From a virus (taxonomy: Duplodnaviria; Caudoviricetes), in IMG/VR virus record IMGVR_UViG_3300045996_001623, positions 1 to 55,770 of that record: a stretch of DNA of 55,770 bases; one strand, written 5' to 3'. Under the pieces are notes generated by a model that was given only the letters and a program-made list of their open reading frames with translations, ran no database searches and was not told the DNA's origin. The position numbers were made by a program, and so were the translations under genes. Below are positions 2,596 through 43,107 of this stretch, piece by piece; position 1 is the stretch's first letter; each line of letters starts with the position of its first letter.

Positions 2596-3573
2596 ATGGC
2601 AACCCGAGACGGTGCAGCCAGCATCCAGGGCGACATGATCCGTGTCACGCCCCTCAACCTCGATGGCACGATCGACACTTCGCGTCCGGTCCTGACGACC
2701 AACGGTTTCATCACCGCGTCGTTCGGCACCGAGTTCGAGGATGGCGACGAGATCACCGAGAAGGCCGCCGACGGCACGGTGTGCATCCAGTACAAGGCTG
2801 ACGACTCCCTCAAGGGCATCACGTTCAGCCTCTCGCTGTGCACCCCGGACCCGGAGTCGGCGGCCCTGATCGCAGGTGGCAAGATCATCTGCGCCGCCGC
2901 CGATGTGGTCGACGACGACGACAACGTGATCGTCAACGCCGGTGACGTCATCGGCTACTCGTCTCCGTCCGTCGGCGCCACGGTGGGCAACCCCGTGGCG
3001 ATCGAGGTCTGGTCGAAGGCGATCGTGAAGGGCAAGCCCGCCGGTGGCACCCCGTACTGGCACTGGGTGTTCCCGTACGTCCGTGTCCGCTACGACGGCG
3101 ACCGCGAGTTCTCGAACGGCGCGCTGTCGAACGAGTACTCGGGCACGGGGGTCGGCAACGACGCCCTGGCCGCGGCCGGGCTCGGCGGGGTCGGCGCCGA
3201 CTTCGTCACCTACAAGGGCGCTCTCGTCAACCCGTTCAGCTACGTCCGGTCGACCGCCAAGCCCGACATCTCGGGTGGTCACTGGTCCGGTGGTTCGGGC
3301 GGCCTGGGCGTGTTCGACAAGACGGCCGACAACTCGATCGGCTGCATCCCGCCGCTCGCGACGTCGGCGACGTCGGGCATCCCCGGCACGTGGAGCCCCG
3401 GCGGGTCGACGCTTCCGGCGTCGGTCGCTGCTCTGCAGTCGGCTTCGCCCGCCATCACGGCGTCGCCCACCACGGCGTGGACGACCGGTCAGTACGTCCA
3501 GACGGCCACGGCCGGAACGGGCGGACGGGCTTACTGGAACGGGACGGCGTGGGTCGCCGGTACCGCTCCCTGA
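2596..3573 (+). CDS. Major tail (tube) protein with C-terminal accessory domain
   Basis: IRVT.L..G..GFI..E.EDGDEI..K.ADG..C motif; C-terminal ASPTTAWTTGQYV..YWNGTAWVAG; SD AGGAAGG. Confidence 0.8.
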   Translation: MATRDGAASIQGDMIRVTPLNLDGTIDTSRPVLTTNGFITASFGTEFEDGDEITEKAADGTVCIQYKADDSLKGITFSLSLCTPDPESAALIAGGKIICAAADVVDDDDNVIVNAGDVIGYSSPSVGATVGNPVAIEVWSKAIVKGKPAGGTPYWHWVFPYVRVRYDGDREFSNGALSNEYSGTGVGNDALAAAGLGGVGADFVTYKGALVNPFSYVRSTAKPDISGGHWSGGSGGLGVFDKTADNSIGCIPPLATSATSGIPGTWSPGGSTLPASVAALQSASPAITASPTTAWTTGQYVQTATAGTGGRAYWNGTAWVAGTAP

Positions 3574-6264: not shown

Positions 6265-6273
6265 TGCTATACT
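6265..6273 (+). promoter_or_regulatory. Extended -10 TGCTATACT, leaderless start 6280
   Basis: GTG after a 6-nt spacer. Confidence 0.7.
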
Positions 6274-9802: not shown

Positions 9803-10215
9803 CCCCGCTCACGTTCGCCAGGAGCGTCGCGACGACGCTCGCCGCCCGTGGACTGCCCAACCCGGCCCACGGACAACTGGGGCCCATGGTGGTGCCCTGC
9901 GAAGGCACGTACGTCACGGTGATGACCCAGACGTATCAGGACCTCGGCGGGAACTGCGGACTCATCCAGATGGCCGACCTGATCATCGTCGCCGCCCGTG
10001 ACTGCTCGTTCGTCGCCAACGAGGACGGCACCACGAACTGGGAAGCCCAGGACGCCGTCTCCGCCAACCTGGACGCCGACACCCAGAAGATCCTCGCCTG
10101 GGCCGAGGCTGCCCGTGCCGACGCCGTCATCCGGACGTCGACCCCGTCGGCCAGCTTCCAGAACGACGGGGCGATCGCCCAGGTGACGGTCCTCGCCCAG
10201 CTTCCGGTCCCGTGA
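9799..10215 (+). CDS. Probable tail terminator / neck protein
   Basis: GTGA overlaps at both ends, size and position. Confidence 0.5.
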   Translation: MTPLTFARSVATTLAARGLPNPAHGQLGPMVVPCEGTYVTVMTQTYQDLGGNCGLIQMADLIIVAARDCSFVANEDGTTNWEAQDAVSANLDADTQKILAWAEAARADAVIRTSTPSASFQNDGAIAQVTVLAQLPVP

Positions 10216-11705
10216 GCGTCGCGCCGCCAATCGACATCGACTCCCTCTCCATCATGGAGAGGATCTCCCTGCTCGACCCGGACGAGCGCGACGACCTCAT
10301 CGGCGACTTCTCACCCGACGACCTCGCCGACCCCGAACTGTGGCTGCGCCCCGACCAGTTGCGGGCCTACCACGACGACGCGTCGACGGTCCTCATGTCC
10401 GCTGGCCGTGGCGCCGGGAAGACCCGAGTCGGGGCGTCATGGGTCAACGAGAAGGCCCGCTCAGAGCCGGGCTCGATCGGTCACCTGGTCGGCCGCACAG
10501 TTTCGGACGTCCGCGACGTCATGATCCAGGGGGAGTCCGGCATCCTCGCCGTCGCCGCCCCGTCGTTCAAGCCGGAGTACCACCCGTCGCTCCGCAAGCT
10601 GATCTGGCCCAACGGCAGCTACGCGATGACGTTCTCGTCGGAGGTCCCGTCCCAGCTTCGAGGCCCCCAGTCGCACTGGACATGGGTCGACGAGATGGCC
10701 GCCCTGAACCACCGGCCCGACGACTCCGGGCTGACCACGTGGGACCAGGTGCGGATCGGCACCCGTCTCGGCGCCCACCCGCAGATCTTCGTGACGACCA
10801 CCCCGAAGCGGGTCAAGGCCGTCCGGGAACTGTTCGCCCTGGCGAAGACCACGTCGAAGGTGTCGCAGCACGGCGCGTCGACGCTCGCCAACCGGGCCCA
10901 CCTGTCGCCCGAGTACCTGCAGAACCTGTGGGACCTGTACGCCGGGACAGCGCTCGAACGGCAGGAGTTGTACGGCGAACTCATCGACGTCGTCGAGGGC
11001 GCCCTGTGGCGGGGCACCGACATCGTCATCGCCGGAACCGACTTCCTGATCGGCGAGACCCGATCGGTCATCGGGGTCGACCCTGGCCTGACCACCGGCG
11101 GTGACGCCACCGGCATCGTGACCGTCCGGGCGTCGCAGGAACGGGCTATCACGATGCGTCGTGCGCTCGTCGTGGAGGACTGGACCGAGCCAGGGTTGGG
11201 CCCCGAGCAGTGGGCTGCCCGTGTCGTCACCGCCTGGCAGACCGAGCGGGACCTGACCGGCACCATCCCGATCATCGTCGCCGAGAAGAACGCCGGAGGC
11301 GAGATGGTCGCCTCCACCCTCGAAGGGCAGGCCGGGGCGAACGAACTGCCGATCACGCTCGTGCAAGCCATCCGGTCGAAGGCGGCGCGCGCCGAACCGA
11401 TCGTCCTCGCCTACCGCAAGCACCGGGTCCGGCACCTGACCGAGATGGAACTGCTGGTCGACGAACAGACGACGTGGGAACCGCCGACGCCCGGCATCTC
11501 GAAGGGGTCCGGCTGGTCGCCGAACCGGATCGACGCAATGGTCCTCGCCGCGACCACCCTGCTGGTCGACGACAGCCCGCTGCGCCGCTTCGGGAAACTC
11601 GGCGTCCAGGAGACCTCCGAAGTGCTGTCGGTCCCCACCGCACGCTGGCAACGAGACCGTGGCTCTCACGGCGGACGCATGCCTTGGCGGGAGGGCCGCG
11701 ACTAG
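10212..11705 (+). CDS. terL: Terminase large subunit
   Basis: AGRGAGKT Walker A, LRGPQ..WVDE Walker B, VTTTP, RNase H VIGVDP, AEKN.GG, SPNRIDA. Confidence 0.95.
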   Translation: MSVAPPIDIDSLSIMERISLLDPDERDDLIGDFSPDDLADPELWLRPDQLRAYHDDASTVLMSAGRGAGKTRVGASWVNEKARSEPGSIGHLVGRTVSDVRDVMIQGESGILAVAAPSFKPEYHPSLRKLIWPNGSYAMTFSSEVPSQLRGPQSHWTWVDEMAALNHRPDDSGLTTWDQVRIGTRLGAHPQIFVTTTPKRVKAVRELFALAKTTSKVSQHGASTLANRAHLSPEYLQNLWDLYAGTALERQELYGELIDVVEGALWRGTDIVIAGTDFLIGETRSVIGVDPGLTTGGDATGIVTVRASQERAITMRRALVVEDWTEPGLGPEQWAARVVTAWQTERDLTGTIPIIVAEKNAGGEMVASTLEGQAGANELPITLVQAIRSKAARAEPIVLAYRKHRVRHLTEMELLVDEQTTWEPPTPGISKGSGWSPNRIDAMVLAATTLLVDDSPLRRFGKLGVQETSEVLSVPTARWQRDRGSHGGRMPWREGRD

Positions 11706-18970: not shown

Positions 18971-19315
18971 GTGGACATCCCCCGCTCCGTCGTCTCAGTC
19001 GATGAGGCCGCGGCGCGCGTCGAAGCGGCGGTCAAGGCGAAACTGGTCCGGTCGTTCACCGAACTGGTCGACGCCACCGACGTCGCCGTTGAGACGCTCG
19101 TGTCGATCGCGATGCACGGACGTCGGGAAGAGGCCAGGGTGCAGGCGGCGAAGGAGATCCTGGACCGGTCGGGACTCACGCCGGAGATCCGCATTTCGAT
19201 CGACAACGTCGGGTCGGAGCGGGAGGCCCGCCTGGCCGAACTGCGCATGAAGTTGGACCGGATGAAGACGTCGATCAACACGCCGATCGAGGTCGGCGAA
19301 GGGAAGACCGCATGA
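18971..19315 (+). CDS. Small helical protein, possible terminase small subunit
   Basis: RVQAAKEILDRSG motif; upstream of portal. Confidence 0.45.
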   Translation: MDIPRSVVSVDEAAARVEAAVKAKLVRSFTELVDATDVAVETLVSIAMHGRREEARVQAAKEILDRSGLTPEIRISIDNVGSEREARLAELRMKLDRMKTSINTPIEVGEGKTA

Positions 19316-19650
19316 ACCTGCCCCTGGCCACCGTCATCGTGTTGGCGTTCGTCGCCGAGCGCCTGGCGATGATCGTCGCCATCGACAAGGTCGGCGATCC
19401 GCTCCGCAAGTTCCTGTACCGCAAGCAAGGCGAGTGGGGGAAGAAGGGCCGGTGGCTGCACTACCTGTTCACCTGCCCGTTCTGCCTGTCCGTGTATTTC
19501 TCGGCGGCGGCGGTGCTCTGGTGGGTGTGGCTGGTCCTCCCGGCCTGGCCCGGCTTCGGGTTCGTGCTGCTCATGATCGGCGCCGTCGCAGGAGCGTCCC
19601 GGCTGATGGTCTCGGCCGACATGACGGCCCACAAGTACGTGGAGCAGTAG
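19312..19650 (+). CDS. DUF1360-like membrane protein
   Basis: LFTCPFCLSVY between TM helices; precedes portal. Confidence 0.7.
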   Translation: MNLPLATVIVLAFVAERLAMIVAIDKVGDPLRKFLYRKQGEWGKKGRWLHYLFTCPFCLSVYFSAAAVLWWVWLVLPAWPGFGFVLLMIGAVAGASRLMVSADMTAHKYVEQ

Positions 19651-19662
19651 CGTTGCGCCGCA

Positions 19663-21303
19663 ATGGCGTTCTTCCGTGATGTCGAGACAGGAGCACAGGT
19701 CGACAGTGGCGGCCCGCGCTTCCTGCCCGCCTACGACGCTCCACGCCCGATCGTCGGGGCCGGGCAACGCCTGAACCTGTCGAAGCGCGGCGGGGAACGA
19801 GTTGACAAGCGAGACGCCGCCGAGTGGCAGAAGGCCGCGTGGCGGTTCTTCGAGCAGATCGGCGAGGTCCACTACGCCTTCAACCTGATCGGCCAGGTGT
19901 GCTCACGGGTGCGGCTGTACCCGGCGATCGTCGCCGCGGCGAACGAGACACCGGTCCACGTCGACCAGTGGCTCGAAAACATGGCGGACAAGGGCAACAC
20001 CGACCGTGCCCGCCGCGTCGGGGACATCGCCAAGGACCTCGTCGCCGACCTCACCGAGAACACTCGTGGCCGCACATCCGGTCTGATGCGCACCATGGCG
20101 ATGAACTTCGGGGTGCCCGGCGAGGTCTACCTGGCCCACAACAAGAAGGGCAGCGAGTGGCTCGTCTGCTCGACCGAAGAGATCAGCCCGCAGAACAACC
20201 AGTGGCGGATTCGTCGTAGCCGACAGCAAGGCGGCGCCGGGGTCGGCAAGGACATCATGTTGCCCGGCGACGCCTACGTCGCCCGGCTGTGGCGCACCCA
20301 CCCCCGCTACACCGATGAGCCGGACTCGTCGATGCTCGGCGTGCTCGACCAGTGCGAGCAACTGGTCCTGCTCGACCAGGCGATGCGCGCCATGGCCCGC
20401 CGGGCGATGAACGCCGGACTCGTGTTCATCCCGAACGGCATCACCGCGTTCTCGTCGGAGGACAAGGAAGATTCCATCGCCGACTCGATCGCGGCGTCGG
20501 CGTTGCAGGCCGTCGAGTCCGAAGCTGCCCTGTCGACCGTGACCCCGAAGGTGCTGACCGGCCCACCGGAACTCGGCAACTTCATCAAGTGGATCGAACT
20601 GACCAAGGCCGTCGACCCGAACCTGGCCGCCGCCGCCCAGAAGCTGCTCGAACGCATCCTCGTCGGCATCGACATCCCGAAGGACGTCGTCAAGGGGCTC
20701 GCTGAGGTCAAGTTCGCCAACGCCATCGTCATCGACGACGACCTGTACCGGGCCCACATCGAGCCGCTCGTGCTGCTCATCGTCGACGCCCTGACGGAGG
20801 TCTACCTGCAGCCCCTCCTGTTGAAGGGCCTGAGCGACGAGGCCGACCAGAAGATCGCCAAGCGGATGGTGATGTGGGCGGACACGTCCAGCATCGTCAC
20901 CCGGCCCGACAAGTCGCAGGCCGCCAACGAGGGCTACGACAAGATGCTGCTGTCGGCCACGGCGTGGCGGCAGTCCCGTGGGTTCTCCGAGACCGACGCT
21001 CCGAAGCCGGACGAACTCATCCGCCGTCTCGCGATCGAGAAGGCGTCGATCCCGCCGGAGATGGCCACCGTCATGCTCCACTCGATCGACCCCGAGTTCT
21101 TCGACACGGCCGCCGCAGCGAACGCCGAAGAGTCCGGCATCCCCAACGACGTCTCCGCATTGCTCGATGAACAGCCCGGAGAGGCGCCGCAGGAGCCCGC
21201 GGCGGCGGACAGGACCCGAACGCCGATGGAAAGCGCTCAGGGCCCGCTGCAGGGCGGAGAGATCACGCCGGGCGGCAACCTGCCCCCGGTCCCCGCCCGC
21301 TGA
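19663..21303 (+). CDS. Portal protein
   Basis: WQ..AW..IGE..YA....SRVRLY, R.WR.HP, AGL.F.P, HIEP motifs of cluster-B-like portals. Confidence 0.88.
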   Translation: MAFFRDVETGAQVDSGGPRFLPAYDAPRPIVGAGQRLNLSKRGGERVDKRDAAEWQKAAWRFFEQIGEVHYAFNLIGQVCSRVRLYPAIVAAANETPVHVDQWLENMADKGNTDRARRVGDIAKDLVADLTENTRGRTSGLMRTMAMNFGVPGEVYLAHNKKGSEWLVCSTEEISPQNNQWRIRRSRQQGGAGVGKDIMLPGDAYVARLWRTHPRYTDEPDSSMLGVLDQCEQLVLLDQAMRAMARRAMNAGLVFIPNGITAFSSEDKEDSIADSIAASALQAVESEAALSTVTPKVLTGPPELGNFIKWIELTKAVDPNLAAAAQKLLERILVGIDIPKDVVKGLAEVKFANAIVIDDDLYRAHIEPLVLLIVDALTEVYLQPLLLKGLSDEADQKIAKRMVMWADTSSIVTRPDKSQAANEGYDKMLLSATAWRQSRGFSETDAPKPDELIRRLAIEKASIPPEMATVMLHSIDPEFFDTAAAANAEESGIPNDVSALLDEQPGEAPQEPAAADRTRTPMESAQGPLQGGEITPGGNLPPVPAR

Positions 21304-32924: not shown

Positions 32925-33365
32925 TCAGGGCAGCGTGGCGCCGCAGATGCGGCACATCGTCAGGTCGGCGGCGAGGTCGATGGCTCCGTGGCCGTGCTCG
33001 TCGGTGTGCGGGCACAGTTCGCGCCGCCCGGCAGAGCGCCCGGTCTCCAACGCCCCGGCGAACCAGGCAAGCATCGTGGCGACGTCCGGGCAGATGCCGT
33101 GGGTGCTGACACGCTCCCCGCCGAACTGGTGGACGAACGCCTCGGCCCACTCCATGGCGTCCGTCGTGGACGTGAGGCGGTTCATGTTGGCGCCCCACCG
33201 CCCCTCGGCGTCCCGGCTGTAGCCGAACTCCGCCTCGGCGGAGAGGGCTTCGATGTCGGCGTCGGTGAGGACATTGCCAGTGGCCGTGACCATCTGGTCC
33301 TCGGCGTCCTGGTCGGCGCGTGCCTGGGCTTCCCAGTCGGTGTCAAACGGGTCGTGGTTCATCAA
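32925..33365 (-). CDS. Hypothetical protein
   Basis: 4-nt overlap with ERF gene, codon bias. Confidence 0.65.
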   Translation of the reverse strand: MMNHDPFDTDWEAQARADQDAEDQMVTATGNVLTDADIEALSAEAEFGYSRDAEGRWGANMNRLTSTTDAMEWAEAFVHQFGGERVSTHGICPDVATMLAWFAGALETGRSAGRRELCPHTDEHGHGAIDLAADLTMCRICGATLP

Positions 33366-34048
33366 AACGGCTCTTCATCTCCTGGTGGCGGGGTCTGCTG
33401 CTCGATCTCAGTGAGCAGGACGTTCAGGTAGCCCTCGACCTCGTCCAGCCACTCCGCGTCCTCGAACAGGGCCTTGCCGGACAGCTTCTTCCCGGCCGAC
33501 GTCGCCCATGCCTTCGTCTCGGCCTTGTATCGCTCCGAGAGGCCCCCGAGCGTGGTCAGGACGGCGTCGATGCGGTCGGGGCGGGTATCGCGCGGTGCGG
33601 GCCGCTCTGGGGCTGCTGGGGGCGCCTTGGCGGCTGCGTGGCCGTCGTCGTCTTCGGTGGCCAGGTTGCAGATCGACAGGATCGAGTAGCGGCGCGCGTA
33701 GCTGATAGCCGACCCGACGTTCTGCGGGGTGCCACCGGCGGGCTTGATGTAGAGCGGCGGGAACCGGAGCCACTCGCCGGACTCGTGGAAGAAGGTGGTG
33801 GAGACGCCGACCTCGGTGGCGGTCTGCGACATGACGAGACCGTGGTCGGCCAGCTTCGGGCGGACCTCGTCGAGGACCTGGCTGAGGGTGGCGTACTTGT
33901 AGCGCATCGGTCCGGCTTCGACCTTGGCGTCGAACGTGATGTCCTTCATCGTCTTCAACGCCTTCACGAAGGCGCTGATCACTTCGACGCTGCCGCTGCT
34001 GGTGGTCCAGGTGAACGGGTCGACGGTGGTCGGTTCTGGGTCTGGCAT
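33362..34048 (-). CDS. erf: ERF-family ssDNA annealing protein
   Basis: YKYATL..V...L..HGL, Q..GSAISYARRYS...EDDDG; leaderless ATG 34048. Confidence 0.9.
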   Translation of the reverse strand: MPDPEPTTVDPFTWTTSSGSVEVISAFVKALKTMKDITFDAKVEAGPMRYKYATLSQVLDEVRPKLADHGLVMSQTATEVGVSTTFFHESGEWLRFPPLYIKPAGGTPQNVGSAISYARRYSILSICNLATEDDDGHAAAKAPPAAPERPAPRDTRPDRIDAVLTTLGGLSERYKAETKAWATSAGKKLSGKALFEDAEWLDEVEGYLNVLLTEIEQQTPPPGDEEPF

Positions 34049-34054
34049 GCCGTC

Positions 34055-34118
34055 AGTATAGGGCGCTATCCGTTCTTCGGGCAAGGGGTTGACGACCTGC
34101 CGTATGGTCCGTTATAGT
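34055..34118. promoter_or_regulatory. Back-to-back SigA promoters, both leaderless
   Basis: Minus TTGCCC-18-TATACT to ATG 34048; plus TTGACG-18-TATAGT to ATG 34126. Confidence 0.75.
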
Positions 34119-34125
34119 GATCCCC

Positions 34126-34464
34126 ATGACACAGACAGAGACGCCCGCACCGGGCACGCTCGCCACCTACGGCATCGGCTCCGACCGATACGCCATGGTC
34201 GTCGTCGCCACTGAGCGCAACGGCCGCACCCTCCTGGTCGACTGGCTCTCCAACGTCGAGGACTCCTGCGGCGACGGTCCGTGGACCGCAGAGCAGATCG
34301 CCGACCACGTCGCCCAGCGCCGGGCCGCCGAGCGCGGCGCCCGGTTCGGTGAGGCGTTCAAGCGGTTCACCCGTCGCACCCACGGCGTCTACATCCTGCA
34401 GGGCCAGACGTACGGCAGCCTCCGCCTTGGCGTGGCCGACGACTACCGAGACCCGGGCTTCTGA
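34126..34464 (+). CDS. Hypothetical phage protein
   Basis: GSDRYA..LG...YRDP.F; leaderless. Confidence 0.75.
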   Translation: MTQTETPAPGTLATYGIGSDRYAMVVVATERNGRTLLVDWLSNVEDSCGDGPWTAEQIADHVAQRRAAERGARFGEAFKRFTRRTHGVYILQGQTYGSLRLGVADDYRDPGF

Positions 34465-34679
34465 TGCCCGTATACACGCCGGACACCCCGAAGTACGACA
34501 TCGAGGTCCGGCTGACCGACGAGTGCCCCAACGCATGGGCGATCCTCGCTCACGTCGACGAAGCCCTTCGCAAGCACGGGGTCAGCGTCGAAGAACGTAA
34601 GGCGGTGATGAAGCAGGCGATGGACGGGGACTACGACCACTTGCTGTGGTTCGTGTCCTGCATGGTCTTCGTCACCTAG
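34464..34679 (+). CDS. Hypothetical phage protein
   Basis: TGATG coupling; NAWAI..V..AL..GDYDHLL. Confidence 0.75.
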   Translation: MPVYTPDTPKYDIEVRLTDECPNAWAILAHVDEALRKHGVSVEERKAVMKQAMDGDYDHLLWFVSCMVFVT

Positions 34680-35620
34680 ATCCCCCCGGCCCTCAGTCCT
34701 GCGTCGGCTGCGAGCGCTTCGAACGCCTCGTCCCAACAGTCGGGCTGCGTCCAGTACAACGTCCGGTCGATCCGGCGCGCCGCCAGCCGATACGTCGATC
34801 CTGCGGCGCTCAGATCGCCCTGAGCGATGTAGAGGCGGGTCAGGTCGCACCACGGCTCCCGGCGGGCCGGTAGCTCGCCCACGGCCTTCCACAGCCACCG
34901 CTCCGGGTCGTCGTCGATCGCCGCCAGGATGCGGAACGCCTCGCAGCGGTCCGGTTCCCACGTCGCGAACGACAGGAACCGCATCATCTCCGCCCGGCAC
35001 TCCGGGTAGCGCCCGGCGTAGAACAACTGGCGGGCGAAGTAGAACGCCATCCGCTCATCGCCCGGGTACTCGGCGACGGCGTCGGTGAGGGTCTGCAGGT
35101 CGGTGCCGTAGTGCGGCTTCGGCCCTTCGATCGGCCAGTGATGCACGGTGGCGTCGATGTCGACGAAGGCGGTGGGTCCAACGAGCAGTTCGTGGGTCGG
35201 GTACCGCCACCGCAGGCCGTGACGCGCGTGGATGTAGGACCGCCACATCTCACCCCAGCCGGGACCGTGGTTCACGACGTGGGTCCGGTACCGGCAGATC
35301 CTGGGGTCGTACGCCTCGCCGATCGCGGTGTGCCAGCCATCGGTGATGGTCTCGTCGGCGTCGAGCCGCATGACGACGTCGATGTCTTCGGGCACCAGCG
35401 CGAGCGCAGCGTTCAGGGCGTCGTCGAAGCGGAACGGTCGGAACGCGGCGCAGTGCACTTCGATGTCGAGGTCGACCAACGCTTCGATCGTGCCGTCCGA
35501 AGACCCGGTGTCGAGCACCACAACGTAGTCGGCGTGCTGCACGGAACGGGCCCACCGTTCGACGTGCGGTTCCTCGTTCCGCATGATGGCGTAGACGGCG
35601 ATGGCGGGCATTCCGGTCAT
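34676..35620 (-). CDS. GT2 glycosyltransferase with TPR-like C-terminus
   Basis: I.RNEE, VVLDTGSSDGT, FDDA.N.AL, LDADE, HE; SD GGAGGA. Confidence 0.9.
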   Translation of the reverse strand: MTGMPAIAVYAIMRNEEPHVERWARSVQHADYVVVLDTGSSDGTIEALVDLDIEVHCAAFRPFRFDDALNAALALVPEDIDVVMRLDADETITDGWHTAIGEAYDPRICRYRTHVVNHGPGWGEMWRSYIHARHGLRWRYPTHELLVGPTAFVDIDATVHHWPIEGPKPHYGTDLQTLTDAVAEYPGDERMAFYFARQLFYAGRYPECRAEMMRFLSFATWEPDRCEAFRILAAIDDDPERWLWKAVGELPARREPWCDLTRLYIAQGDLSAAGSTYRLAARRIDRTLYWTQPDCWDEAFEALAADAGLRAGGI

Positions 35621-35661
35621 GGTGCGAGGTCCTCCGCGGATTGCGTGCGATGATGTCCGGC

Positions 35662-35895
35662 ATGCCAGACACGACGGTCGTGCTCAACCAGATGACCAAG
35701 GCGTCGCAGGATGCGCATGCCGCTCTCGATGCGTGGATGAACGATGCAGGCGGGGACCCGCAGGACGTCGACCAGAAGGTGCAGACGTACCGGACGCTGC
35801 GTCAACAGTGGCTGCTGCTGAACCAGCCGGTGATGCCCGACAACGCTGAGGGTCCGCCTCCGTCGGAGCCGCCGGGCCCCGAAGAGGATCTCTGA
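35662..35895 (+). CDS. Hypothetical protein
   Basis: Codon bias; fills gap between minus-strand genes. Confidence 0.55.
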   Translation: MPDTTVVLNQMTKASQDAHAALDAWMNDAGGDPQDVDQKVQTYRTLRQQWLLLNQPVMPDNAEGPPPSEPPGPEEDL

Positions 35896-35897
35896 CG

Positions 35898-36131
35898 TCA
35901 CCCCTTGCGGGCTTCGTCGACCCGCTGAGAGATCACTGACAGGCACTCCGGCGTGTCGGCGTACCAGGTGCGGATCGAGCGCTGCAGGAACTCCGGCAGG
36001 TCCTCGAACGGCATGCCGACCAGGAGGTCGAGAGCGTCGTCGCCGTACTGCTCGGTGCGCTCGTACTCGGTGCGGATGTCGCCCGGGTCGGTGCTGGTGT
36101 GGATCGAGCGGATCGGACCGGTCTGTGTCAT
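35898..36131 (-). CDS. Hypothetical protein (MTQTG...)
   Basis: Leaderless after TTGACT-16-TATACT (36166-36139). Confidence 0.7.
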   Translation of the reverse strand: MTQTGPIRSIHTSTDPGDIRTEYERTEQYGDDALDLLVGMPFEDLPEFLQRSIRTWYADTPECLSVISQRVDEARKG

Positions 36132-36154
36132 GACCCGCAGTATAGCGGTCTATG

Positions 36155-36400
36155 TCAACGAGTCAACTGGTCCAGGTAGTCCCGGACGCCCTTCGCCGCC
36201 AGCGAGTTCATTGACACCCCACGCGCCTCGGCCACGTCCCGGAGCCTGTCGGCGACGTCCTGGGGCAGCCGAATGTGGATCATGTTCGGGTAGTTCTGCC
36301 GGGCCTTCACCTGACAGTCCCGTGAGCAGTACACCTGGCGGCGGCCCCGGCCCTTCTGCTCGAACTCGGCGTCGCAGCCGTCCCGCTTACACGTCGTCAT
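36155..36400 (-). CDS. Zinc-finger plus ribbon-helix-helix DNA-binding protein
   Basis: C...GC..F..GR...YCSRDC and IHIRLPQDVADRL...A..RGVSMNSL. Confidence 0.8.
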   Translation of the reverse strand: MTTCKRDGCDAEFEQKGRGRRQVYCSRDCQVKARQNYPNMIHIRLPQDVADRLRDVAEARGVSMNSLAAKGVRDYLDQLTR

Positions 36401-36680
36401 GGTCAGCTTCGACGGCGTCGTGCCAGGCCCGACCGGACCGGACAGCGTCGACCTCGGCGATCGCCGCCCGATAGCGGTCGATGACGGTCCGGATCGCTTC
36501 CATCTCATCGGCGGTGTAGCGGCGGGATCGGCCCGAGCCCGGCGTGTTCGTCTCGTCGCCGAGCAGGATCACCCCCGTCCGCAGCCAGTAGTCGAGCACG
36601 CGGAACGAGATCCCGGTGTGTTCGAGGACGTCGCGGGTGCTGAACAGCCGCTCGCCCGGCTTCGTCTGTGTCATCGTCAT
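36387..36680 (-). CDS. MerR-type HTH DNA-binding protein
   Basis: FST.DV...TGISFRVLDYW.RTG..GSG..RRYT. Confidence 0.85.
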   Translation of the reverse strand: MTMTQTKPGERLFSTRDVLEHTGISFRVLDYWLRTGVILLGDETNTPGSGRSRRYTADEMEAIRTVIDRYRAAIAEVDAVRSGRAWHDAVEADHDDV

Positions 36681-36694
36681 GCCTCGCAGACCTC

Positions 36695-37012
36695 TCAGTC
36701 AGGAGAGTCGTCGTGGTCCCAACTCCACCGGCGTAGCCCCGCAGCTACAGCATCGGCAGGGTTGGCGTCTTTCCAGTTGTGATGTCCCCGGCAGAGCACC
36801 TGGACGTTGTCGTCCTCCAAGTGTCCGCCGGGCCGTCCGCTTCGCAAGATGATCTCGTCGACGTCGAGCGGCCCCCAGCACCGCACCCCGCCAACCCCCG
36901 GCGCCTCGCACCGGAAGCCCGCCCGTCGCAGCGCCCGTTCGCGCACAGCGTCCCGTTCCTCACGCTCTGCGCGCCGCTTGTCTGACATCGGCCGGATTCG
37001 GCCCCGCTTCAC
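36695..37012 (-). CDS. HNH endonuclease-like protein
   Basis: CE..C...DVDE..RS..GG...DNVQVLCRGHH; GTGA overlap. Confidence 0.75.
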   Translation of the reverse strand: MKRGRIRPMSDKRRAEREERDAVRERALRRAGFRCEAPGVGGVRCWGPLDVDEIILRSGRPGGHLEDDNVQVLCRGHHNWKDANPADAVAAGLRRWSWDHDDSPD

Positions 37013-37281
37013 GGCGCCGCCCGGTCCAGCTTCTCGACCGCCGCGATCGCGATCGCAGCACACTCGATCAGGAGACGACGCGCATCGACCGCCGCGGCGG
37101 CCGACGAGTTCGACAACTCGACGGCACGCCGGGCGATCAGCCAACCGAAGTCCTCCACCGGATGCGCGTCGTCGTGCTCCGGCGTCCAACCGTGAAGGTC
37201 CTGCTGCCGCTGCCGTTCGACCAGCAACTCGGCGAGGACCAGCCGGGTGGCGTTCGTGTCGACGAAATGCTCAGTCGACAC
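37009..37281 (-). CDS. Hypothetical phage protein
   Basis: ERQRQ..GWTPEHDD.H motif. Confidence 0.75.
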   Translation of the reverse strand: MSTEHFVDTNATRLVLAELLVERQRQQDLHGWTPEHDDAHPVEDFGWLIARRAVELSNSSAAAAVDARRLLIECAAIAIAAVEKLDRAAP

Positions 37282-37438
37282 TCAGGACTGCGCTTTCACG
37301 GTGCCGCTCGTCGGTCTGCCCGAGCGTGAACAGGGCGCCGCAGTCAGAGCAGGCCAGAAGCGCAGACGCGGCGAACGGTCCGTCGGCGGGCACAGCGAAC
37401 AGGAGCAGGGTGCCAGTGCACTCCAAGAGCTTGCTCAT
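37271..37438 (-). CDS. Small hypothetical protein (55 aa, not in ORF track)
   Basis: ATGA overlap with upstream gene; CSDC. Confidence 0.5.
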   Translation of the reverse strand: MSKLLECTGTLLLFAVPADGPFAASALLACSDCGALFTLGQTDERHRESAVLSVD

Positions 37439-38082
37439 CTGTCATCACCATGGTCCTCGTACACCACGTTATCAAGGTCGGCGTCCCCCGTGTGAGCGGA
37501 ATCCACAGGATGGGGGACAACGTCTTCCACGGGCTGTGAGGACTCGGTAGGGGCGGGTTTCCTGGGCTTTCGGTTCTTCGCCCGCAGCCCGCCCCGCCCG
37601 ATCAGCGTCTCGCCGTAGACGACCTTGTGCCTTGTCCCCTCGGACTTGGGGACAACCTGGCGGAGCGCGGTGACGTTCCACTTCGACGATGTGGCGCCGG
37701 GCCCGCATGCTGGGAGGACCTTGCGGAGGACGTCGGCCGGGATGGCGGCGGTCAGTTCGCCGGTCTCGGTGTCGATCATCGGGGTCGACAGGTCGGTGAT
37801 GACTCCGTCGCCGTCCCACTGGTGCGACGTCTCGGTCTGGCGGTGCACGGTGATGGTGCCGTCCCTGGTCAGGGCGGTGAACTCGTCGGGGATGCGATGG
37901 CCGAGCACGATGCCGTGGTCGCGGCGCAGGATCGACAGGTCGGTGATGAGCCGGTCCAGGCGGTGCCACACTTCGACGGACGCGTCGACGTCGCCACGGC
38001 CCCATTCGCGGGGGTCGGTGGTGAGCATCGACAGGCGGACGGAGATCTCGTCCAGCTTGTCGGCCATCTCCTGCGGCGTCAT
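37435..38082 (-). CDS. Hypothetical protein
   Basis: Start reassigned to ATG 38082 (ATGA overlap). Confidence 0.7.
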   Translation of the reverse strand: MTPQEMADKLDEISVRLSMLTTDPREWGRGDVDASVEVWHRLDRLITDLSILRRDHGIVLGHRIPDEFTALTRDGTITVHRQTETSHQWDGDGVITDLSTPMIDTETGELTAAIPADVLRKVLPACGPGATSSKWNVTALRQVVPKSEGTRHKVVYGETLIGRGGLRAKNRKPRKPAPTESSQPVEDVVPHPVDSAHTGDADLDNVVYEDHGDDR

Positions 38083-38291
38083 CGCTGCGGTCTCCCGCAC
38101 TTGCCGACCAGGTCCTCCCTGTCGGCGAACGGGCCGAACGGGGATGCGCAGTGCCAGTACCAGCCGCCGTAGACCTCGGCCGTGGAGTCCCAGACCCGCT
38201 CGTTGCCGGGCAGGGTCTCGTGCAGGTACAGGGCCAGCGACTTCCGCAGCGGACGCCCGCAGTGCTCGCACGTCGCCCTCGTCGCCCTCAT
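38079..38291 (-). CDS. Small CxxC protein
   Basis: ATGA overlaps. Confidence 0.6.
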   Translation of the reverse strand: MRATRATCEHCGRPLRKSLALYLHETLPGNERVWDSTAEVYGGWYWHCASPFGPFADREDLVGKCGRPQR

Positions 38292-38476
38292 GATCGGGCG
38301 TCCATGTCGGGGCCCTGGACGTGAGCGACGGCCGTGGCTTCAAGGTGGGCGGCCACAGCCTGGTTCAGCCTCACGTAAGCGCCTCTGGTCGGCCTGCCAG
38401 ACATCTCGCGCTGGTGCAGTTCCACGGCAGCGGCGATGACCACGTTCCCGGTGGCGACGCCCTGCGGATAGCCCAT
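38288..38476 (-). CDS. Hypothetical protein
   Basis: Leaderless after TGT-TACCGT (38491-38483). Confidence 0.6.
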   Translation of the reverse strand: MGYPQGVATGNVVIAAAVELHQREMSGRPTRGAYVRLNQAVAAHLEATAVAHVQGPDMDARS

Positions 38477-38513
38477 GCTGTAACGGTAACAGGTGGGTGT
38501 CGCAGTGAGGGGC

Positions 38514-38549
38514 GAATAGCCCCGGTCTCTCCATCGACCGGGGCTATTC
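38514..38549. terminator. Perfect 14-bp hairpin
   Basis: GAATAGCCCCGGTC / GACCGGGGCTATTC just after 38555 stop. Confidence 0.75.
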
Positions 38550-38554
38550 CGCGG

Positions 38555-38974
38555 TCACGGGGCGATGCGTTCGATCGTCCGGCCGTCTTCGCCGAGCAGC
38601 CAGGCCCGGGTCACGAGGTACCACGACGTCTCGCCGCGGTAGACGACCTCGATCAGCTTGACGTTCAGGTCGTAGTGCCGGGTGGACAGCGTTGCCCCGC
38701 TGGTCTGCGTCGGCGTCATCCCGCCACCCGTGACGGTGGTGTCCAGGGTGAAGTTCCTCGGGGACGGTTCCCACGTCTGGTCGACGTGGTTCCGGCAATC
38801 GAGGACGTCGGAATCGAACTGCGGCCAGGTCGCCAGGATCTCGTCGGCGTCGGTGACGACGTTGACCCGGATGAAGTCCGCCGGAGCGAAGATCGTGGTG
38901 TCGTCGATCACCCGGTGGATGCCGTCCTGCTCGTCTTCGACGGACCGCGTGAAGTGAACCTTCAACGTGAACAT
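38555..38974 (-). CDS. Hypothetical protein
   Basis: SD GAAAGG; -10 TAACGT at 39037-39032. Confidence 0.7.
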   Translation of the reverse strand: MFTLKVHFTRSVEDEQDGIHRVIDDTTIFAPADFIRVNVVTDADEILATWPQFDSDVLDCRNHVDQTWEPSPRNFTLDTTVTGGGMTPTQTSGATLSTRHYDLNVKLIEVVYRGETSWYLVTRAWLLGEDGRTIERIAP

Positions 38975-39034
38975 GCTCTCTGCCTTTCTGTCTTCCGTGC
39001 CCGGACCTCGCGGTAACCGAGTCAGCCTCGAACG

Positions 39035-39238
39035 TTAGACGATCGGGCCTTCGAAGCGGCGATGGTCGGTCTCGGCGACGTGCCGGTCCTCCGACGCTGC
39101 GGTCTCGAACACCGTGCCGCACGTGACACACCGGGTCCAGTACGGGCCCTTCGCCGTTCGGCGTGTCGTACGGGTCCTACCGGCCTTCACGGTGATGCCC
39201 AGGGCGCGGGCTTCCGCCTCGGTCAGCCGCGCGGCCAT
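39035..39238 (-). CDS. Small C2H2-like zinc-finger protein
   Basis: CVTCG..F......H....H. Confidence 0.65.
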   Translation of the reverse strand: MAARLTEAEARALGITVKAGRTRTTRRTAKGPYWTRCVTCGTVFETAASEDRHVAETDHRRFEGPIV

Positions 39239-39426
39239 CGCCGAGCCGGGTCCTCGCCGACGGGGAGCGCCAGGATGCGGGTCTCGAACCCGGAGCGTCG
39301 CAGCCGGTCCTGGCGGACCACGACCTCGTTCGCTGCGTCGTGCCCGGCCATGTCAGGGAACAGGCACACCCACCGGTTCACGCCCTTCGCCCACGCCCAC
39401 ACGGCGTAGCGGTCAGAAGTCCTCAT
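39223..39426 (-). CDS. Hypothetical protein
   Basis: Fills operon gap. Confidence 0.5.
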   Translation of the reverse strand: MRTSDRYAVWAWAKGVNRWVCLFPDMAGHDAANEVVVRQDRLRRSGFETRILALPVGEDPARRWPRG

Positions 39427-40372
39427 CGCGCCGGTCCAGGTGGCGGAGCGTCGCGCCGAGCGCCTTCGACACCATCGCCGACGCCCCCAGGGGCTGCTCG
39501 CCACGCTGCACGGGCTCCAAGGCGGCCGGGGCCCGCTGGAAGCTGCGGGGCTCGTCAGGGACGCCCTGCAGGGCCAGTGAGCCGTGGGTGTCATGCAACA
39601 GGCGCGATCCGATGGCCTGCAGCGACGCCAGGGCGCGGGCGTGGTCGCCACGGAACTCGCGGACCACTTCGGTGTACGACGTCACCCAGACCTCGCGGAT
39701 CGGGTCGAACGTCCCGATCCGTTCGATCACTTCGGCGGCGTAGACCGGGTTCGGGTTGAACGGCTTGCCGAGTTCCCGGCCGTACATGGCCCGGAACTCG
39801 TCGGCGGCGATCTGCATGCCCTCGGCGACCGACACCCGCCGCGGTGGCGGCTGGTCCGGGTCCTGCCGGGTCGACGGCTTGCATGGCTGCGGCATCGGGT
39901 ACTCGGCGGACATCTCCCCGGACCGGTCCTGCGACAGGTCGTTGTGCAGGTCGGCGAGCGACGTTCCGGCCAGCCACCGCTCCCACTTGTCGCCGCCCTC
40001 CATGTAGATCGACGACAGGAACGGGTTGCACAGGTTGCACGGCTTGCGCAGCGAGTCCTTCCCGATCACCCAGCCCGATCCGTTGCAACCCTTCATCGGG
40101 ACGCCCTGAGCGGCGAGCGCTTCGGCGACTCGCATCTCCCGTTCGGTCGTGACGATCGGGTGGTGCCGGTAGGCGTCGAGCACGACGGGCAGCGACGGCT
40201 TGAACCCGCCCTTCCAGTTCTGCGCGAAGTCGGTGCAGACGTCCATCATCGCTGCGGCGTTGTCGGCTTCCCGCATGAACGAGCGGACGTACGTGGCGAT
40301 GGCCTGCTCGTTGAACCCGCCGAGCCCTCCCACGAGGACCCCCACGGCTTGCATTGCTTCGTCCTCGGTCAC
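39413..40372 (-). CDS. Hypothetical protein, replication-linked by position
   Basis: C.G.GWV..PC..CNP; GTGA overlap. Confidence 0.7.
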   Translation of the reverse strand: MTEDEAMQAVGVLVGGLGGFNEQAIATYVRSFMREADNAAAMMDVCTDFAQNWKGGFKPSLPVVLDAYRHHPIVTTEREMRVAEALAAQGVPMKGCNGSGWVIGKDSLRKPCNLCNPFLSSIYMEGGDKWERWLAGTSLADLHNDLSQDRSGEMSAEYPMPQPCKPSTRQDPDQPPPRRVSVAEGMQIAADEFRAMYGRELGKPFNPNPVYAAEVIERIGTFDPIREVWVTSYTEVVREFRGDHARALASLQAIGSRLLHDTHGSLALQGVPDEPRSFQRAPAALEPVQRGEQPLGASAMVSKALGATLRHLDRRDEDF

Positions 40373-40533
40373 GCCTCGGCCCCTTCCCGCAGCGCCCTCT
40401 CGGCCTTCGGCCAGCGCTTGTTGACGTTGTCCACCAGTTCGAGCCTGGGGTGTGGCCCGAGCGGGAGCCGAAGCACCCATCCCATGAGTTCCCGGACTGC
40501 GTCGTGGAGTTCGTCGATCTCGTCATTGGTCAT
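40369..40533 (-). CDS. Small hypothetical protein (54 aa, not in ORF track)
   Basis: 4-nt overlaps at both ends; SD AGGA. Confidence 0.6.
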   Translation of the reverse strand: MTNDEIDELHDAVRELMGWVLRLPLGPHPRLELVDNVNKRWPKAERALREGAEA

Positions 40534-41285
40534 GTCGTTGGTCCTGTCTGGGTCTCGCGCAGCAGTCGCCGCGCCCGGTCCATGATGTCATTCGATTCGC
40601 GTTGCGCAACAGGCGGCGGGTTCGCCTCCCATCGGCTCCGGTTGAGCCACGTCGTCGGGTGGGGCACCTTGTCCGGCTCGTTCTTCGCCGTCCAGTAGTC
40701 CAGCCACTTCTGCAGCCCGCCCTCGGCGGCAGCCTTGTCGGCGTCGGTGAGCCGCTCGAACGCTCGGGATGCCTGGGCCTTGTCGATCGCTCTCGGGTAC
40801 TGCTTCCACCACGCCTCGAACCGTGGCGTGTACTCCTGCGCCTTCCCCCGCTTGCGGGGGCTAGGGGGACTCTCGTTGTTCTTGCTCTCTCTGTCTTGCT
40901 CTCTCTCGTGGGTCACCGGTGAACCGGGGGGTGGGTCACCGGTGACCTGGGGGGCCCCCTCACAGATGACCCCCGGGTCACGGGTGAACCGGGGGTCAAA
41001 TGGGGCGTCGCCTGCCAAGTGGTAGAGGTTCGGAAGCTGCGATCCGTCGTCGCCGCGACGCTGCTCAACGCGGAGCGCACCGACCTCGACGAGCCGTTCG
41101 ACGCAGCGCTTCGCTGTCGGCCTGGACTTGCCGATGCGGTCGGCGATGGTGCCGAGTGAGGGGCGGATCTCGTTGCCGTAGCGGGCGAGGACACCGAAGG
41201 TGCGGACGTCGTCACCGGTCAGGTCTGGGTGGTACAGGACCCACTCCGGGATCGCTGCGAACTTGTAGCCGAGTGAGACGGTCAT
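40530..41285 (-). CDS. Replication initiator (N-terminal wHTH, lambda-O/replisome-organiser-like)
   Basis: PS..TIA..IG.SR.T.KR...L...G; C-terminal FE.WW..YPR..DK..A..PHPTTWLN..RWE. Confidence 0.85.
   Translation of the reverse strand: MTVSLGYKFAAIPEWVLYHPDLTGDDVRTFGVLARYGNEIRPSLGTIADRIGKSRPTAKRCVERLVEVGALRVEQRRGDDGSQLPNLYHLAGDAPFDPRFTRDPGVICEGAPQVTGDPPPGSPVTHEREQDRESKNNESPPSPRKRGKAQEYTPRFEAWWKQYPRAIDKAQASRAFERLTDADKAAAEGGLQKWLDYWTAKNEPDKVPHPTTWLNRSRWEANPPPVAQRESNDIMDRARRLLRETQTGPTT
40910..40990. repeat. Iteron-like repeats GGGTCACCGGTGA(A)CC inside initiator gene (putative ori)
   Basis: Copies at 40910, 40933, 40975 and a degenerate copy at 40958; adjacent pyrimidine tract 40870-40907. Confidence 0.7.
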
Positions 41286-41311
41286 CGGGCGCCCTTTCGA
41301 GCATGTAACTC

Positions 41312-41340
41312 TGGATATACGGCGGCTGCCCTGCTACGAT
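41312..41340 (+). promoter_or_regulatory. Promoter of antisense RNA
   Basis: TGGATA-17-TACGAT with TG extension. Confidence 0.6.
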
Positions 41341-41347
41341 GGGGTCC

Positions 41348-41437
41348 ACTTCGGGACAGACCTCGCAGGCGGGTAGCAACGCCTCGGTCGTGTTCTGGCT
41401 CCATCCCACTCGCCGGGGGTGGAGCGCGTCCCGGAGT
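41348..41437 (+). ncRNA. Putative 90-nt three-way-junction RNA antisense to initiator leader
   Basis: P1 41348-57/41428-37, P2 41359-89, P3 41398-407/41416-25; +1 equals first paired base. Confidence 0.5.
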
Positions 41438-41463
41438 ATGGCACTCGTCGCCCGGCGTGTCGA
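41435..41463 (-). promoter_or_regulatory. Promoter of replication operon
   Basis: TCGACA-17-CATACT with TG extension. Confidence 0.6.
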
Positions 41464-41514
41464 CATTCCGTCACACGAATGTCATGGACAACGGGAAGTA
41501 CAACACGTTATAGT
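41462..41514 (+). promoter_or_regulatory. Dyad GACATTC-N8-GAATGTC and rightward promoter TGGACA-18-TATAGT (leaderless 41522)
   Basis: Read directly; dyad lies between divergent -35 boxes. Confidence 0.6.
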
Positions 41515-41521
41515 TCAGGTC

Positions 41522-41698
41522 GTGAGCAAGACCCAGAAGCCCGTCCCCACCAAGCGGGGCACCCACGGCCGCGTCGGCATGACGCTGGCACAAGTCGCCG
41601 CCGAGCACATCGCAGAAGCCGCACTCACCCGCAACGAAGATGGCGACATCATCGACGCCAACGGCAAGAACTGGGGCAAGACGGGGGCGGGCAAGTGA
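41522..41698 (+). CDS. Hypothetical protein
   Basis: Leaderless GTG. Confidence 0.6.
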   Translation: MSKTQKPVPTKRGTHGRVGMTLAQVAAEHIAEAALTRNEDGDIIDANGKNWGKTGAGK

Positions 41699-41877
41699 AG
41701 TGCTGCCACAACGTCCTCCGCAACGGCTACTGGACCGGCCGCCGCTGCAGCCGGGACGCCACCACCGCCGTCCAAGTCGGGCCCGGCGCCGACCTCAGCA
41801 AGACCGGCAACCGACTCCGCGCCGAAGGCGAGGAAGTCCCCATGTGCGCCCAGCACGCCAGGAAGTTCGACAAGTGA
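41695..41877 (+). CDS. Small Cys/His protein
   Basis: GTGA overlaps; C..G.RC..CAQH. Confidence 0.6.
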   Translation: MKCCHNVLRNGYWTGRRCSRDATTAVQVGPGADLSKTGNRLRAEGEEVPMCAQHARKFDK

Positions 41878-42035
41878 CCACTCTCGACATCGCCACCCTC
41901 GGCGCCGCAGCCCTCACCGGCTACGTCATCTGGCGCCAGTACCTCCGCCCGATCTGGGTGAACCGCCGCCAGCCGCTCTACGAGCCGCGCATCACCGAGC
42001 CGTGGGTCAACCCGAAGGTCCGCTGGCCGTCGTGA
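41874..42035 (+). CDS. Small membrane protein
   Basis: GTGA overlaps, one TM helix. Confidence 0.55.
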   Translation: MTTLDIATLGAAALTGYVIWRQYLRPIWVNRRQPLYEPRITEPWVNPKVRWPS

Positions 42036-42166
42036 AGAACACCGCCAAGTGCCCGCACTGCGGGCAGACCGTCCGCACCGTCAAGTACAAGGGCGTGCGC
42101 ATGCTGGCCGGGCACGACCACCCGGACGGCGGCATGTGCCAGGGCGCTTACACGAGGCCGACATGA
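42032..42166 (+). CDS. Small zinc-ribbon protein (44 aa)
   Basis: CPHCG..H..C; overlaps at both ends. Confidence 0.55.
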   Translation: MKNTAKCPHCGQTVRTVKYKGVRMLAGHDHPDGGMCQGAYTRPT

Positions 42167-42279
42167 CCGGCGACCCGTTGTTCCCCGACCAGGGACCGGG
42201 GACGGTCGACCCGTCGCTGCTGACACCGATCGCCTTCCTGATGATCCTGCTCTGGGCTCTCGGGACGATGCCCGGTTGA
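42163..42279 (+). CDS. Small membrane protein
   Basis: ATGA overlap, hydrophobic C-terminus. Confidence 0.45.
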   Translation: MTGDPLFPDQGPGTVDPSLLTPIAFLMILLWALGTMPG

Positions 42280-42304
42280 CGACGACCGCATAGCCCGATA
42301 TACT
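42276..42304 (+). promoter_or_regulatory. SigA promoter followed by CAGAC-rich leader
   Basis: TTGACG-17-TATACT. Confidence 0.75.
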
Positions 42305-42339
42305 CCACTCGACCAGACACAGACCGACAGGACCAGACC

Positions 42340-43107
42340 ATGTGGATCATCTCCAAGGGCAGCTTCGTCTCCCTGGTACAGCACCAGGACGACAGCACGA
42401 AGCTTCGAGCCCGAGCCCGCACCAGGGCCCATCTCATCAAGATCTTCCCCGACGCCACCATCGAGGATCTCGGCGTCAACGCCCCCGACTACCGGTGGCA
42501 CGCCAACGTCGACCGTGCCGATGCCGCCGCCAAGGTCGCCCAGACCGTCATGGACGTCGACTACACGTCGCACGTGAAGGAGGCCGTTACCGGTGGTCAC
42601 GGCCCCGGCGCCGACCACCAGTTCTACTCGGCCATGATGCAGTGCTGGCGGGCCCTCAACACGCTGCAGGATCGCGGGCGGCCCGCCGCCAACTACGGCT
42701 ACGGCGGGTCCCGCGGTGGCTCGCAGGGCGCTCTGTGGCCCAGGGATGACTACGCCCTGTGGCCCGACCTGGACACCGAGCCCGAGCCCGGTGCGAGGAT
42801 CACGAAGCTGTCCGACAGCATCGCCGCTCGCATGACCGGCGACTTCCGCCACCAGCAGGATCTCGCCAACGAAGAGTACGAGATCCAGTGGGATGGCGAC
42901 CCTGACGCAGGTGACGAGGTCATCACGTCAACGGATGGCCGGTACACGCTCATGTACGTGTCGAAGGCCACCGACGACACCGACGACTGGGGTGAGTGGC
43001 GGATCTTGTGCGTCGACGAGAGCGCTGTGCTCGAAGGGTTCGAGGACATCGAGGACGCCGAGCACTTCGTGGAGCAGTACGAGGCCGGAGAGGTTGAGTG
43101 GGTCTGA
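42340..43107 (+). CDS. Hypothetical phage protein
   Basis: MWI...F.S.V..L..RAR...DY.W. Confidence 0.8.
   Translation: MWIISKGSFVSLVQHQDDSTKLRARARTRAHLIKIFPDATIEDLGVNAPDYRWHANVDRADAAAKVAQTVMDVDYTSHVKEAVTGGHGPGADHQFYSAMMQCWRALNTLQDRGRPAANYGYGGSRGGSQGALWPRDDYALWPDLDTEPEPGARITKLSDSIAARMTGDFRHQQDLANEEYEIQWDGDPDAGDEVITSTDGRYTLMYVSKATDDTDDWGEWRILCVDESAVLEGFEDIEDAEHFVEQYEAGEVEWV

Follow-up and report, generated by a model that had tools for sequence, protein, structure and literature searches.

The question raised by this locus is why the leader of a phage replication initiator gene should contain a predicted promoter that points against the gene and is followed at once by a stretch predicted to fold into a structured RNA. 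The locus is a 238-bp divergent region of an IMG/VR virus record of 55,770 bp. The window analysed here is the whole of this record, with an estimated completeness of 72% and a G+C content of about 68%. A sequence-only reading had proposed an antisense control of replication and, possibly, a plasmid-like prophage state. The antisense part of this proposal is favoured by the initiator assignment, the class of the -10 box, the conservation and the fold, whereas the plasmid-like state found no support in the analysis. On balance, we lean towards the plus-strand RNA being a cis-encoded antisense (counter-transcribed) RNA that, together with convergent transcription, would lower the output of the rep operon.

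Genomic context of the divergent region

The gene blocks of the window have been delimited by codon-position GC content and PHROG matches. These blocks and the features around the divergent region are the following:

110-182, tRNA-Glu
495-32921, plus strand, virion gene block (major head, portal, terminase, tape measure)
32925-41285, minus strand, leftward block (Erf-like annealing protein, glycosyltransferase, HNH proteins, MerR-type HTH protein and ORFans)
40530-41285, minus strand, replication initiator gene (rep), 251 aa (PHROG 270, PHROG 391)
41286-41523, divergent region of 238 bp that separates the leftward replication operon from the rightward genes
41524-41700, plus strand, first rightward gene, 59 aa (ORF list, codon-position GC)
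GTG 41524 onward, plus strand, rightward block, genes mostly without family

The 251-aa initiator is encoded by the first gene of the leftward block. The 59-aa product of the first rightward gene had no match in PHROG or Pfam, and a DNA search of 40400-42200 against cultured phages gave no matches. As had been noted before, neither an integrase nor par genes were named among the scanned ORFs of this record, which is about 72% complete, and the same holds for a repressor, most ORFs of the right arm being without family.

Predicted promoters in the divergent region

A promoter scan of positions 40000-43000, with a reporting threshold of 9/12 matches, found three promoter-like sites, against 0.2 expected from shuffles. 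The features of the region are the following:

41292-41297, minus strand, Shine-Dalgarno-like AAAGGG, 6 nt 5' of ATG 41285 (sequence reading)
41312-41340, plus strand, predicted antisense promoter, TGGATA (41312-41317), 17-nt spacer and TACGAT (41335-41340) (motif class, conservation)
41348-41437, plus strand, predicted three-way-junction RNA, 90 nt (folding of both strands)
41463-41435, minus strand, rep operon promoter TCGACA-17-CATACT, TG-extended, 9/12 (promoter scan)
41462-41483, perfect dyad GACATTC-N8-GAATGTC, candidate operator
41485-41514, plus strand, main rightward promoter TGGACA-18-TATAGT, 10/12, 9 nt before GTG 41524 (promoter scan)

The rep promoter had been described as TCGACA-17-CATACT with a leader of about 140 nt, in agreement with the site located here, from which transcription is predicted to start at about 41428 (7-8 nt past the -10 box) and to give a leader of about 143 nt up to ATG 41285. 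The dyad was also found where it had been placed, between the divergent -35 boxes of rep and of the rightward promoter (TGGACA); it overlaps the former and abuts the latter. It is the sole perfect copy in the window, which holds one further site with three mismatches. The stronger rightward promoter at 41485-41514 was absent from the sequence-only reading.

The proposed plus promoter TGGATA-17-TACGAT is present and its -10 box carries a TGn extension (TGCTACGAT, 41332-41340, plus strand), but it reaches 8/12 by manual count, below the scan threshold of 9, and was not listed by the scan. The pattern TGNTACGAT matches the window once, at the TGCTACGAT site, with 0.47 matches expected. This predicted promoter falls within the rep leader, with 47 nt separating it from the rep start codon, and the spacing seen at the other copies of the motif in the window would place the start of its transcript at 41347/41348, where helix P1 begins. 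The sense and antisense promoter motifs of the window face each other, 103 nt apart.

The extended -10 class of this site, TGnTAnnnT, is under-represented in the window, with 6 copies on both strands against 10.28 expected. A start codon (GTG or ATG) begins 7-8 nt after the -10 box, leaving a gap of 6-7 nt, in four of the five other copies, which are the following:

6265-6273, plus strand, TGCTATACT, before an ORF of 690 aa
13201-13209, plus strand, TGCTATACT, before an ORF of 383 aa
45486-45494, plus strand, TGCTATACT, before an ORF of 89 aa
38483-38491, minus strand, TGTTACCGT, before an ORF of 62 aa

The three identical plus-strand copies are each preceded by ACAC/ACACGG, and some of them fall inside the virion gene block; only short ORFs follow the fifth copy (37466, minus strand). 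Leaderless transcripts are common in Actinobacteria, and the copies located before start codons are probably promoters of leaderless mRNAs, judging by their position. As four of the five other copies immediately precede start codons, TGnTAnnnT appears to be a real promoter type of this phage, and the plus-strand -10 box gains plausibility as a promoter from belonging to a class that the phage uses elsewhere.

A terminator scan of 40000-43000 found none after the junction on the plus strand, the lone terminator-like site being at 40654-40677, and for this reason the plus transcript may read into the rightward genes.

Predicted structure of the proposed antisense RNA

The three-way junction that had been read at 41348-41437 was obtained on the plus strand as both the MFE and the centroid fold; helices P1 and P3 have 10 bp each and P2 is interrupted. 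The plus-strand fold has an energy of -48.7 kcal/mol (z -3.62, with 1/200 shuffles as good), versus -38.9 kcal/mol (z -1.96) for the minus strand of the same 90 nt. Since the plus fold is better in both energy and z, the view that G-U pairs favour the plus strand holds in the window. The junction persists when a context of 193 nt (41348-41540) is folded. On the plus RNA alone can the whole junction form, because the 3' arm of P1 contains the predicted rep start (about 41428). The overlap of the two transcripts, first estimated at about 80 nt, comes to about 81 nt, and the junction RNA would be complementary to the leader over this length. The ribosome site AAAGGG (41292-41297) is outside this RNA, and the structure around the rep start codon is weak in the window (-18.7 kcal/mol, a value computed with T for U that could shift by up to 1.9).

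The fold of the window by itself is only moderately unusual: in a sample of 400 random 90-nt windows of the record, 9 are at least as stable (-48.7 kcal/mol) on the better of their two strands, and in 59 the strands differ by 9.8 kcal/mol or more. It is through its conservation in relatives that the fold rises above the chance level. An Rfam search of 40000-43000 did not assign the element to a family: six matches with E up to 10 were returned, all below gathering and none of them in 41286-41523. A riboswitch or a known sRNA has been rejected on this basis.

Conservation of the element in related loci

Relatives were found by peptide-pattern scans, which yielded one viral, nine metagenome and two genome loci (L002 and L003 being the same contig). 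A noncoding stretch precedes the rep operon in eight loci: the window, L003, L004, L005, L007, L008, L009 and L012. The Rep proteins of these loci are 44-58% identical to that of the window.

On the antisense strand TGnTAnnnT is present in 7/8 loci, the distance between its 5' end and the first start codon being 24-47 nt; in the eighth, L007, TACGAT is kept and TG is absent. The background of this motif is 17 matches per 170,596 strand-positions, the seven antisense ones included. The sites of L003 (TGATACGAT) and L005 (TGTTAAGTT) show three differences, all at degenerate positions of the motif. No such motif was found within 150 nt in L006, L010 and L011, where rep directly follows a coding gene, or in the distant L013. 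This conservation speaks in favour of the plus promoter proposed for the window. A sense extended -10 faces the antisense motif at a distance of 85-97 nt in L008, L009 and L012, and the face-to-face transcripts would overlap by about 65 nt in L003, as compared with about 81 nt in the window.

The z scores of the interval between the promoters on both strands are the following:

Window, antisense -3.62, sense -1.96
L003, antisense -3.35, sense -1.13
L005, antisense -3.27, sense -2.18
L004, antisense -3.71, sense -2.95
L008, antisense -3.30, sense -2.75
L009, antisense -2.23, sense -1.01
L012, antisense -2.54, sense -0.18
L007, antisense -4.57, sense -3.83

The antisense strand of this interval folds better than shuffles in all eight loci, and its z is more negative than that of the sense strand in every one of them. 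Free energy favours the antisense strand in 7/8 loci, by 0.8 to 9.5 kcal/mol, with L004 favouring the sense strand by 0.9 kcal/mol, and the pairs that are possible on one strand only (21 antisense, 14 sense) are not decisive. By the energies and the G-U counts the two strands differ only weakly, and the sign test on the eight loci is suggestive rather than strong because they amount to about five independent lineages.

Pairing and the promoter motif are conserved among the relatives, and the arm sequences are not. A three-way junction was also obtained for L008, in which the core of P2 is common with the window and the sequences of P1 and P3 are different. A single hairpin of 12-14 bp followed by a G/U-rich tail is found in L003, L004 and L005; by manual count this tail does not satisfy the T-run rule for terminators. 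At the end of the sense leader, L008 and L012 have a hairpin of about 9 bp in which the Shine-Dalgarno sequence is enclosed. The gene upstream of the rep operon has the same direction as rep in L003, L005 and L012, and for this reason these loci offer no gene for the antisense promoter to express; the neighbour on the antisense-promoter side in L012 is an HTH-rich protein. In L007 a divergent gene for a tail-tube-like protein (PF25595, 8.6e-7) is located on that side, and the contigs of L004, L008 and L009 end too early to show the neighbour gene.

With a covariance model derived from the window sequence only, L008 was recovered at the corresponding position (20.8 bits, E 0.029), L009 and L012 were missed, and nothing besides L008 was better than E 0.5. 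The MAFFT alignments of these divergent elements had the -10 motifs and helices out of register and were left out of the covariation counts. RNAalifold applied to one MAFFT alignment gave an 8-pair hairpin only. Pattern scans of viral contigs gave no matches to a 22-nt stretch of P1/P2 (exact pattern) or to TGCTACNNTCGATCTCGGTCG, and 22 stretches with GAGTCGCCNNTNATCGCGC, a pattern that fits L004 only; none of these stretches has an extended -10 in the 120 nt before it. The pattern TGCTACRMT-gap-TCGNAGGCG was found in 108 stretches of viral contigs, which were taken as chance matches, with no Rep relatives among them (tblastn, five Rep proteins, 121 loci).

The initiator and its in-gene iterons

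The assignment of the leftward gene as a replication initiator is supported by the match to PHROG 270, 'replication initiation protein' (9.5e-35), besides that to PHROG 391, 'O-like' (4.4e-9). The protein consists of an N-terminal winged HTH, a linker whose coding portion bears iterons, and a C-terminal domain. The Pfam matches are to winged HTH domains and are weak, none being better (HTH at residues 21-79), and comparison of the Rep family profile with solved structures also gave weak wHTH matches, at E 0.35 or worse. The family is rare, with 18 proteins among 5.8 billion. The nearest matches in cultured phages are 26-42% identical, and those of full length belong to Arthrobacter and Gordonia phages (27-31% identity, 'RepA-like replication initiator' or HTH proteins); the plasmid-borne matches among those listed are HTH proteins with 24-35% identity.

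The repeats found within rep by repeat search, and the corresponding iteron regions of three relatives, are the following:

40908-40930, 40931-40953 and 40973-40995, window, three iterons of 23 nt
40880-40906, window, two 13-nt TCTTGCTCTCTCT repeats beside the iterons
3299-3409, iteron region of L003
607-674, iteron region of L008
457-524, iteron region of L004

Both kinds of repeats in the window are located in the linker-coding portion of the gene. The layout of the iterons is kept in the three relatives examined (three repeats of 21-24 nt, 23-24 nt apart), and their sequences differ from one relative to another and from the window. In these four loci each of the tandem iterons (21-24 nt) contains an internal palindrome, and the short repeated A/T-richer stretch beside them encodes an invariant EREQ.NES peptide; the rep gene of L003 has an additional pair of 15-nt repeats. 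An N-terminal DNA-binding domain, iterons within the gene and then an A/T-richer stretch are the marks of lambda-O-type initiators, and all of them were found here. The initiator is lambda-O-like and does not belong to a plasmid Rep family known to be controlled by ctRNAs. The iteron region at 40880-40995 is probably the origin, and it looks like a lambda-type in-gene origin with co-varying specificity; a likely origin position is thus indicated for a rare initiator family. With the iterons inside rep, the origin can be explained without the structured intergenic element. A role of the RNA as replication primer has been rejected, since its transcription would lead away from the iterons.

Discussion

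According to the mechanism proposed, the rep promoter (41463-41435, minus strand) would give an mRNA whose leader measures about 143 nt, and the TGCTACGAT promoter inside this leader would fire in the opposite direction from about 41347/41348. The antisense transcript would start with the 90-nt junction, which has full complementarity with the rep leader over about 81 nt, and antisense pairing together with the collision of convergent polymerases would hold down the initiator and the genes behind it. As this RNA would be made from each genome copy, repression would be proportional to copy number. Cleavage of the duplex, a refolding that hides the ribosome site and premature termination are candidate ways in which pairing may lower Rep. 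The positions of the promoters, the fold and their conservation rest on sequence and comparison; the synthesis of the RNA, its pairing with the leader and the resulting decrease of Rep are our inference.

The plus promoter could instead be a second, upstream promoter of the rightward genes, with the junction as the 5' UTR of their mRNA (a stabilising one, for example) and the overlap with the rep leader either incidental or acting by promoter interference alone. No terminator-like site is found from 41437 to GTG 41524, the junction is retained in the fold of 41348-41540, and L007 does have a divergent tail-tube-like gene on that side (PF25595, 8.6e-7). However, a stronger promoter (10/12) already lies 9 nt before GTG 41524, and the motif is kept in L003, L005 and L012 although the neighbour gene runs the other way, which makes this explanation unlikely. 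It is also rather improbable that the structure works in the sense strand, as a rep mRNA leader acting as stability element, attenuator or protein-controlled translation site, with the antisense -10 otherwise employed. The antisense z is the more negative in all eight loci, the leader cannot form P1 since the predicted rep start lies inside its 3' arm, and the retention of TGnTAnnnT with substitutions at degenerate positions only would be left unexplained. These points outweigh the sense z scores of -1.96 in the window, -2.95 in L004, -2.75 in L008 and -3.83 in L007, the leader-end hairpin of L008 and L012 (about 9 bp) with the Shine-Dalgarno sequence in it, and the sense-strand hairpin followed by a U-rich stretch in L003.

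Very little probability is given to an element acting as DNA, that is, a set of operators or a part of the origin whose inverted repeats bind Rep or a repressor. The region is rich in inverted repeats, the perfect dyad adjoins it, and initiators often repress their own promoters; however, the iterons lie inside rep in the window, L003, L008 and L004 and are unlike the P1-P3 arms by reading of the sequences, and the arm sequences vary among relatives that keep the pairing and the promoter motif. The last explanation considered was chance, by which a GC-rich intergenic stretch would simply fold well beside a promoter-like hexamer, as suggested by the 9/400 random 90-nt windows that fold as well on one strand and by the 0.47 matches to TGNTACGAT expected in the window. 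The recurrence of the antisense extended -10, the facing sense promoter and the structured interval in 7-8 of the 8 loci, with Rep proteins just 44-58% identical to that of the window, renders chance highly improbable.

Taken as a cis-antisense RNA, the element can be compared with the ctRNAs that control plasmid rep genes, such as pT181 RNAI/II, pIP501 RNAIII, pMV158 RNAII, R1 CopA and those of the corynebacterial pGA1/pCG1 type. Like them, it has an opposite-strand promoter inside the rep leader, firing against it, and the RNA predicted in silico is small, folded, non-coding, complementary to the leader and encoded on every copy of the replicon. It differs from them in that a discrete short transcript is not delimited by a terminator, none being found after 41437 on the plus strand, in that the RNA is a three-way junction instead of one or two stem-loops and leaves the ribosome site uncovered, and in that the initiator is lambda-O-like with in-gene iterons and not a plasmid Rep. 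Face-to-face promoters are also known from the switches between lysis and lysogeny of coliphages 186 and P2, which operate by transcriptional interference with no need of a folded RNA. The promoters of the window likewise fire toward each other over a short overlap, but the interval between them is consistently structured and the target is the replication operon.

In phage lambda, the oop RNA overlaps the end of cII and not the O leader, and it has a terminator. The predicted antisense RNA of the window, by contrast, overlaps the leader of the initiator itself, and it shows no sequence or fold similarity to oop, Rfam being without match in 41286-41523. Olszewski et al. (2014, PMC3985674) describe the convergent pO/oop promoter upstream of O as lowering transcription from pR, and lambda resembles the window in having a phage replication module with the origin in the initiator gene and a convergent promoter just upstream. 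For extrachromosomal mycobacteriophage prophages, RepA-dependent and RNA-based origins have been described, and an origin within repA, as in lambda O, has been suggested, in the passages of Wetzel et al. (2020, PMC7157519). The RepA-like initiator of these phages is, as in the window, transcribed opposite to the structural genes, but according to the same passages they carry parABS, and their non-coding RNA is proposed to initiate replication, whereas transcription of that of the window would lead away from the iterons. Those passages of PMC7157519 give no description of an antisense control of repA. A literature search brought up no account of antisense control of a RepA-like or O-like initiator in an actinobacteriophage. 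An antisense RNA has reportedly been found for repA of phage N15. To our knowledge, antisense control of initiators is textbook matter for plasmids and is little documented for phages outside lambda oop.

By analogy, the system of the window would work like ctRNA control and like lambda pO/oop, and by sequence it is in neither family. It is possible, and put forward as a tentative proposal, that it represents an undescribed class of structured cis-antisense RNAs, transcribed from face-to-face extended -10 promoters and providing a plasmid-like gene-dosage brake on lambda-O-type initiators of high-GC phages. The three-way-junction form of the window and L008 may perhaps also serve as a protein or ligand platform by which replication is linked with host state. 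If the antisense reading is true, this element would be a compact, conserved RNA regulator of phage DNA replication in Actinobacteria-like hosts and an RNA family new to Rfam, and it might be used as a part for controlling copy number in phage-derived vectors.

Other features of the record and of the related loci

The virion genes of the window stand in an unusual order: major head (495-2519), then large terminase (10212-11705), then small terminase and portal (18971-21303). The record may be permuted or mosaic. In L009 (331-618) and L012 (2714-3000) the operon has a small gene (about 95 aa, no family) ahead of rep, and the antisense promoter sits before this gene and not before rep. A stretch located about 130-190 nt downstream of the antisense promoter is shared by L008 (1-110), L009 (about 100-200) and L012 (2480-2570). 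It consists of a GC-rich hairpin, GGAACGACCCCCGG..., followed by a CTACTCCGGGGGTGT-like sequence, and may serve either as a terminator for both directions or as a site of the attachment type.
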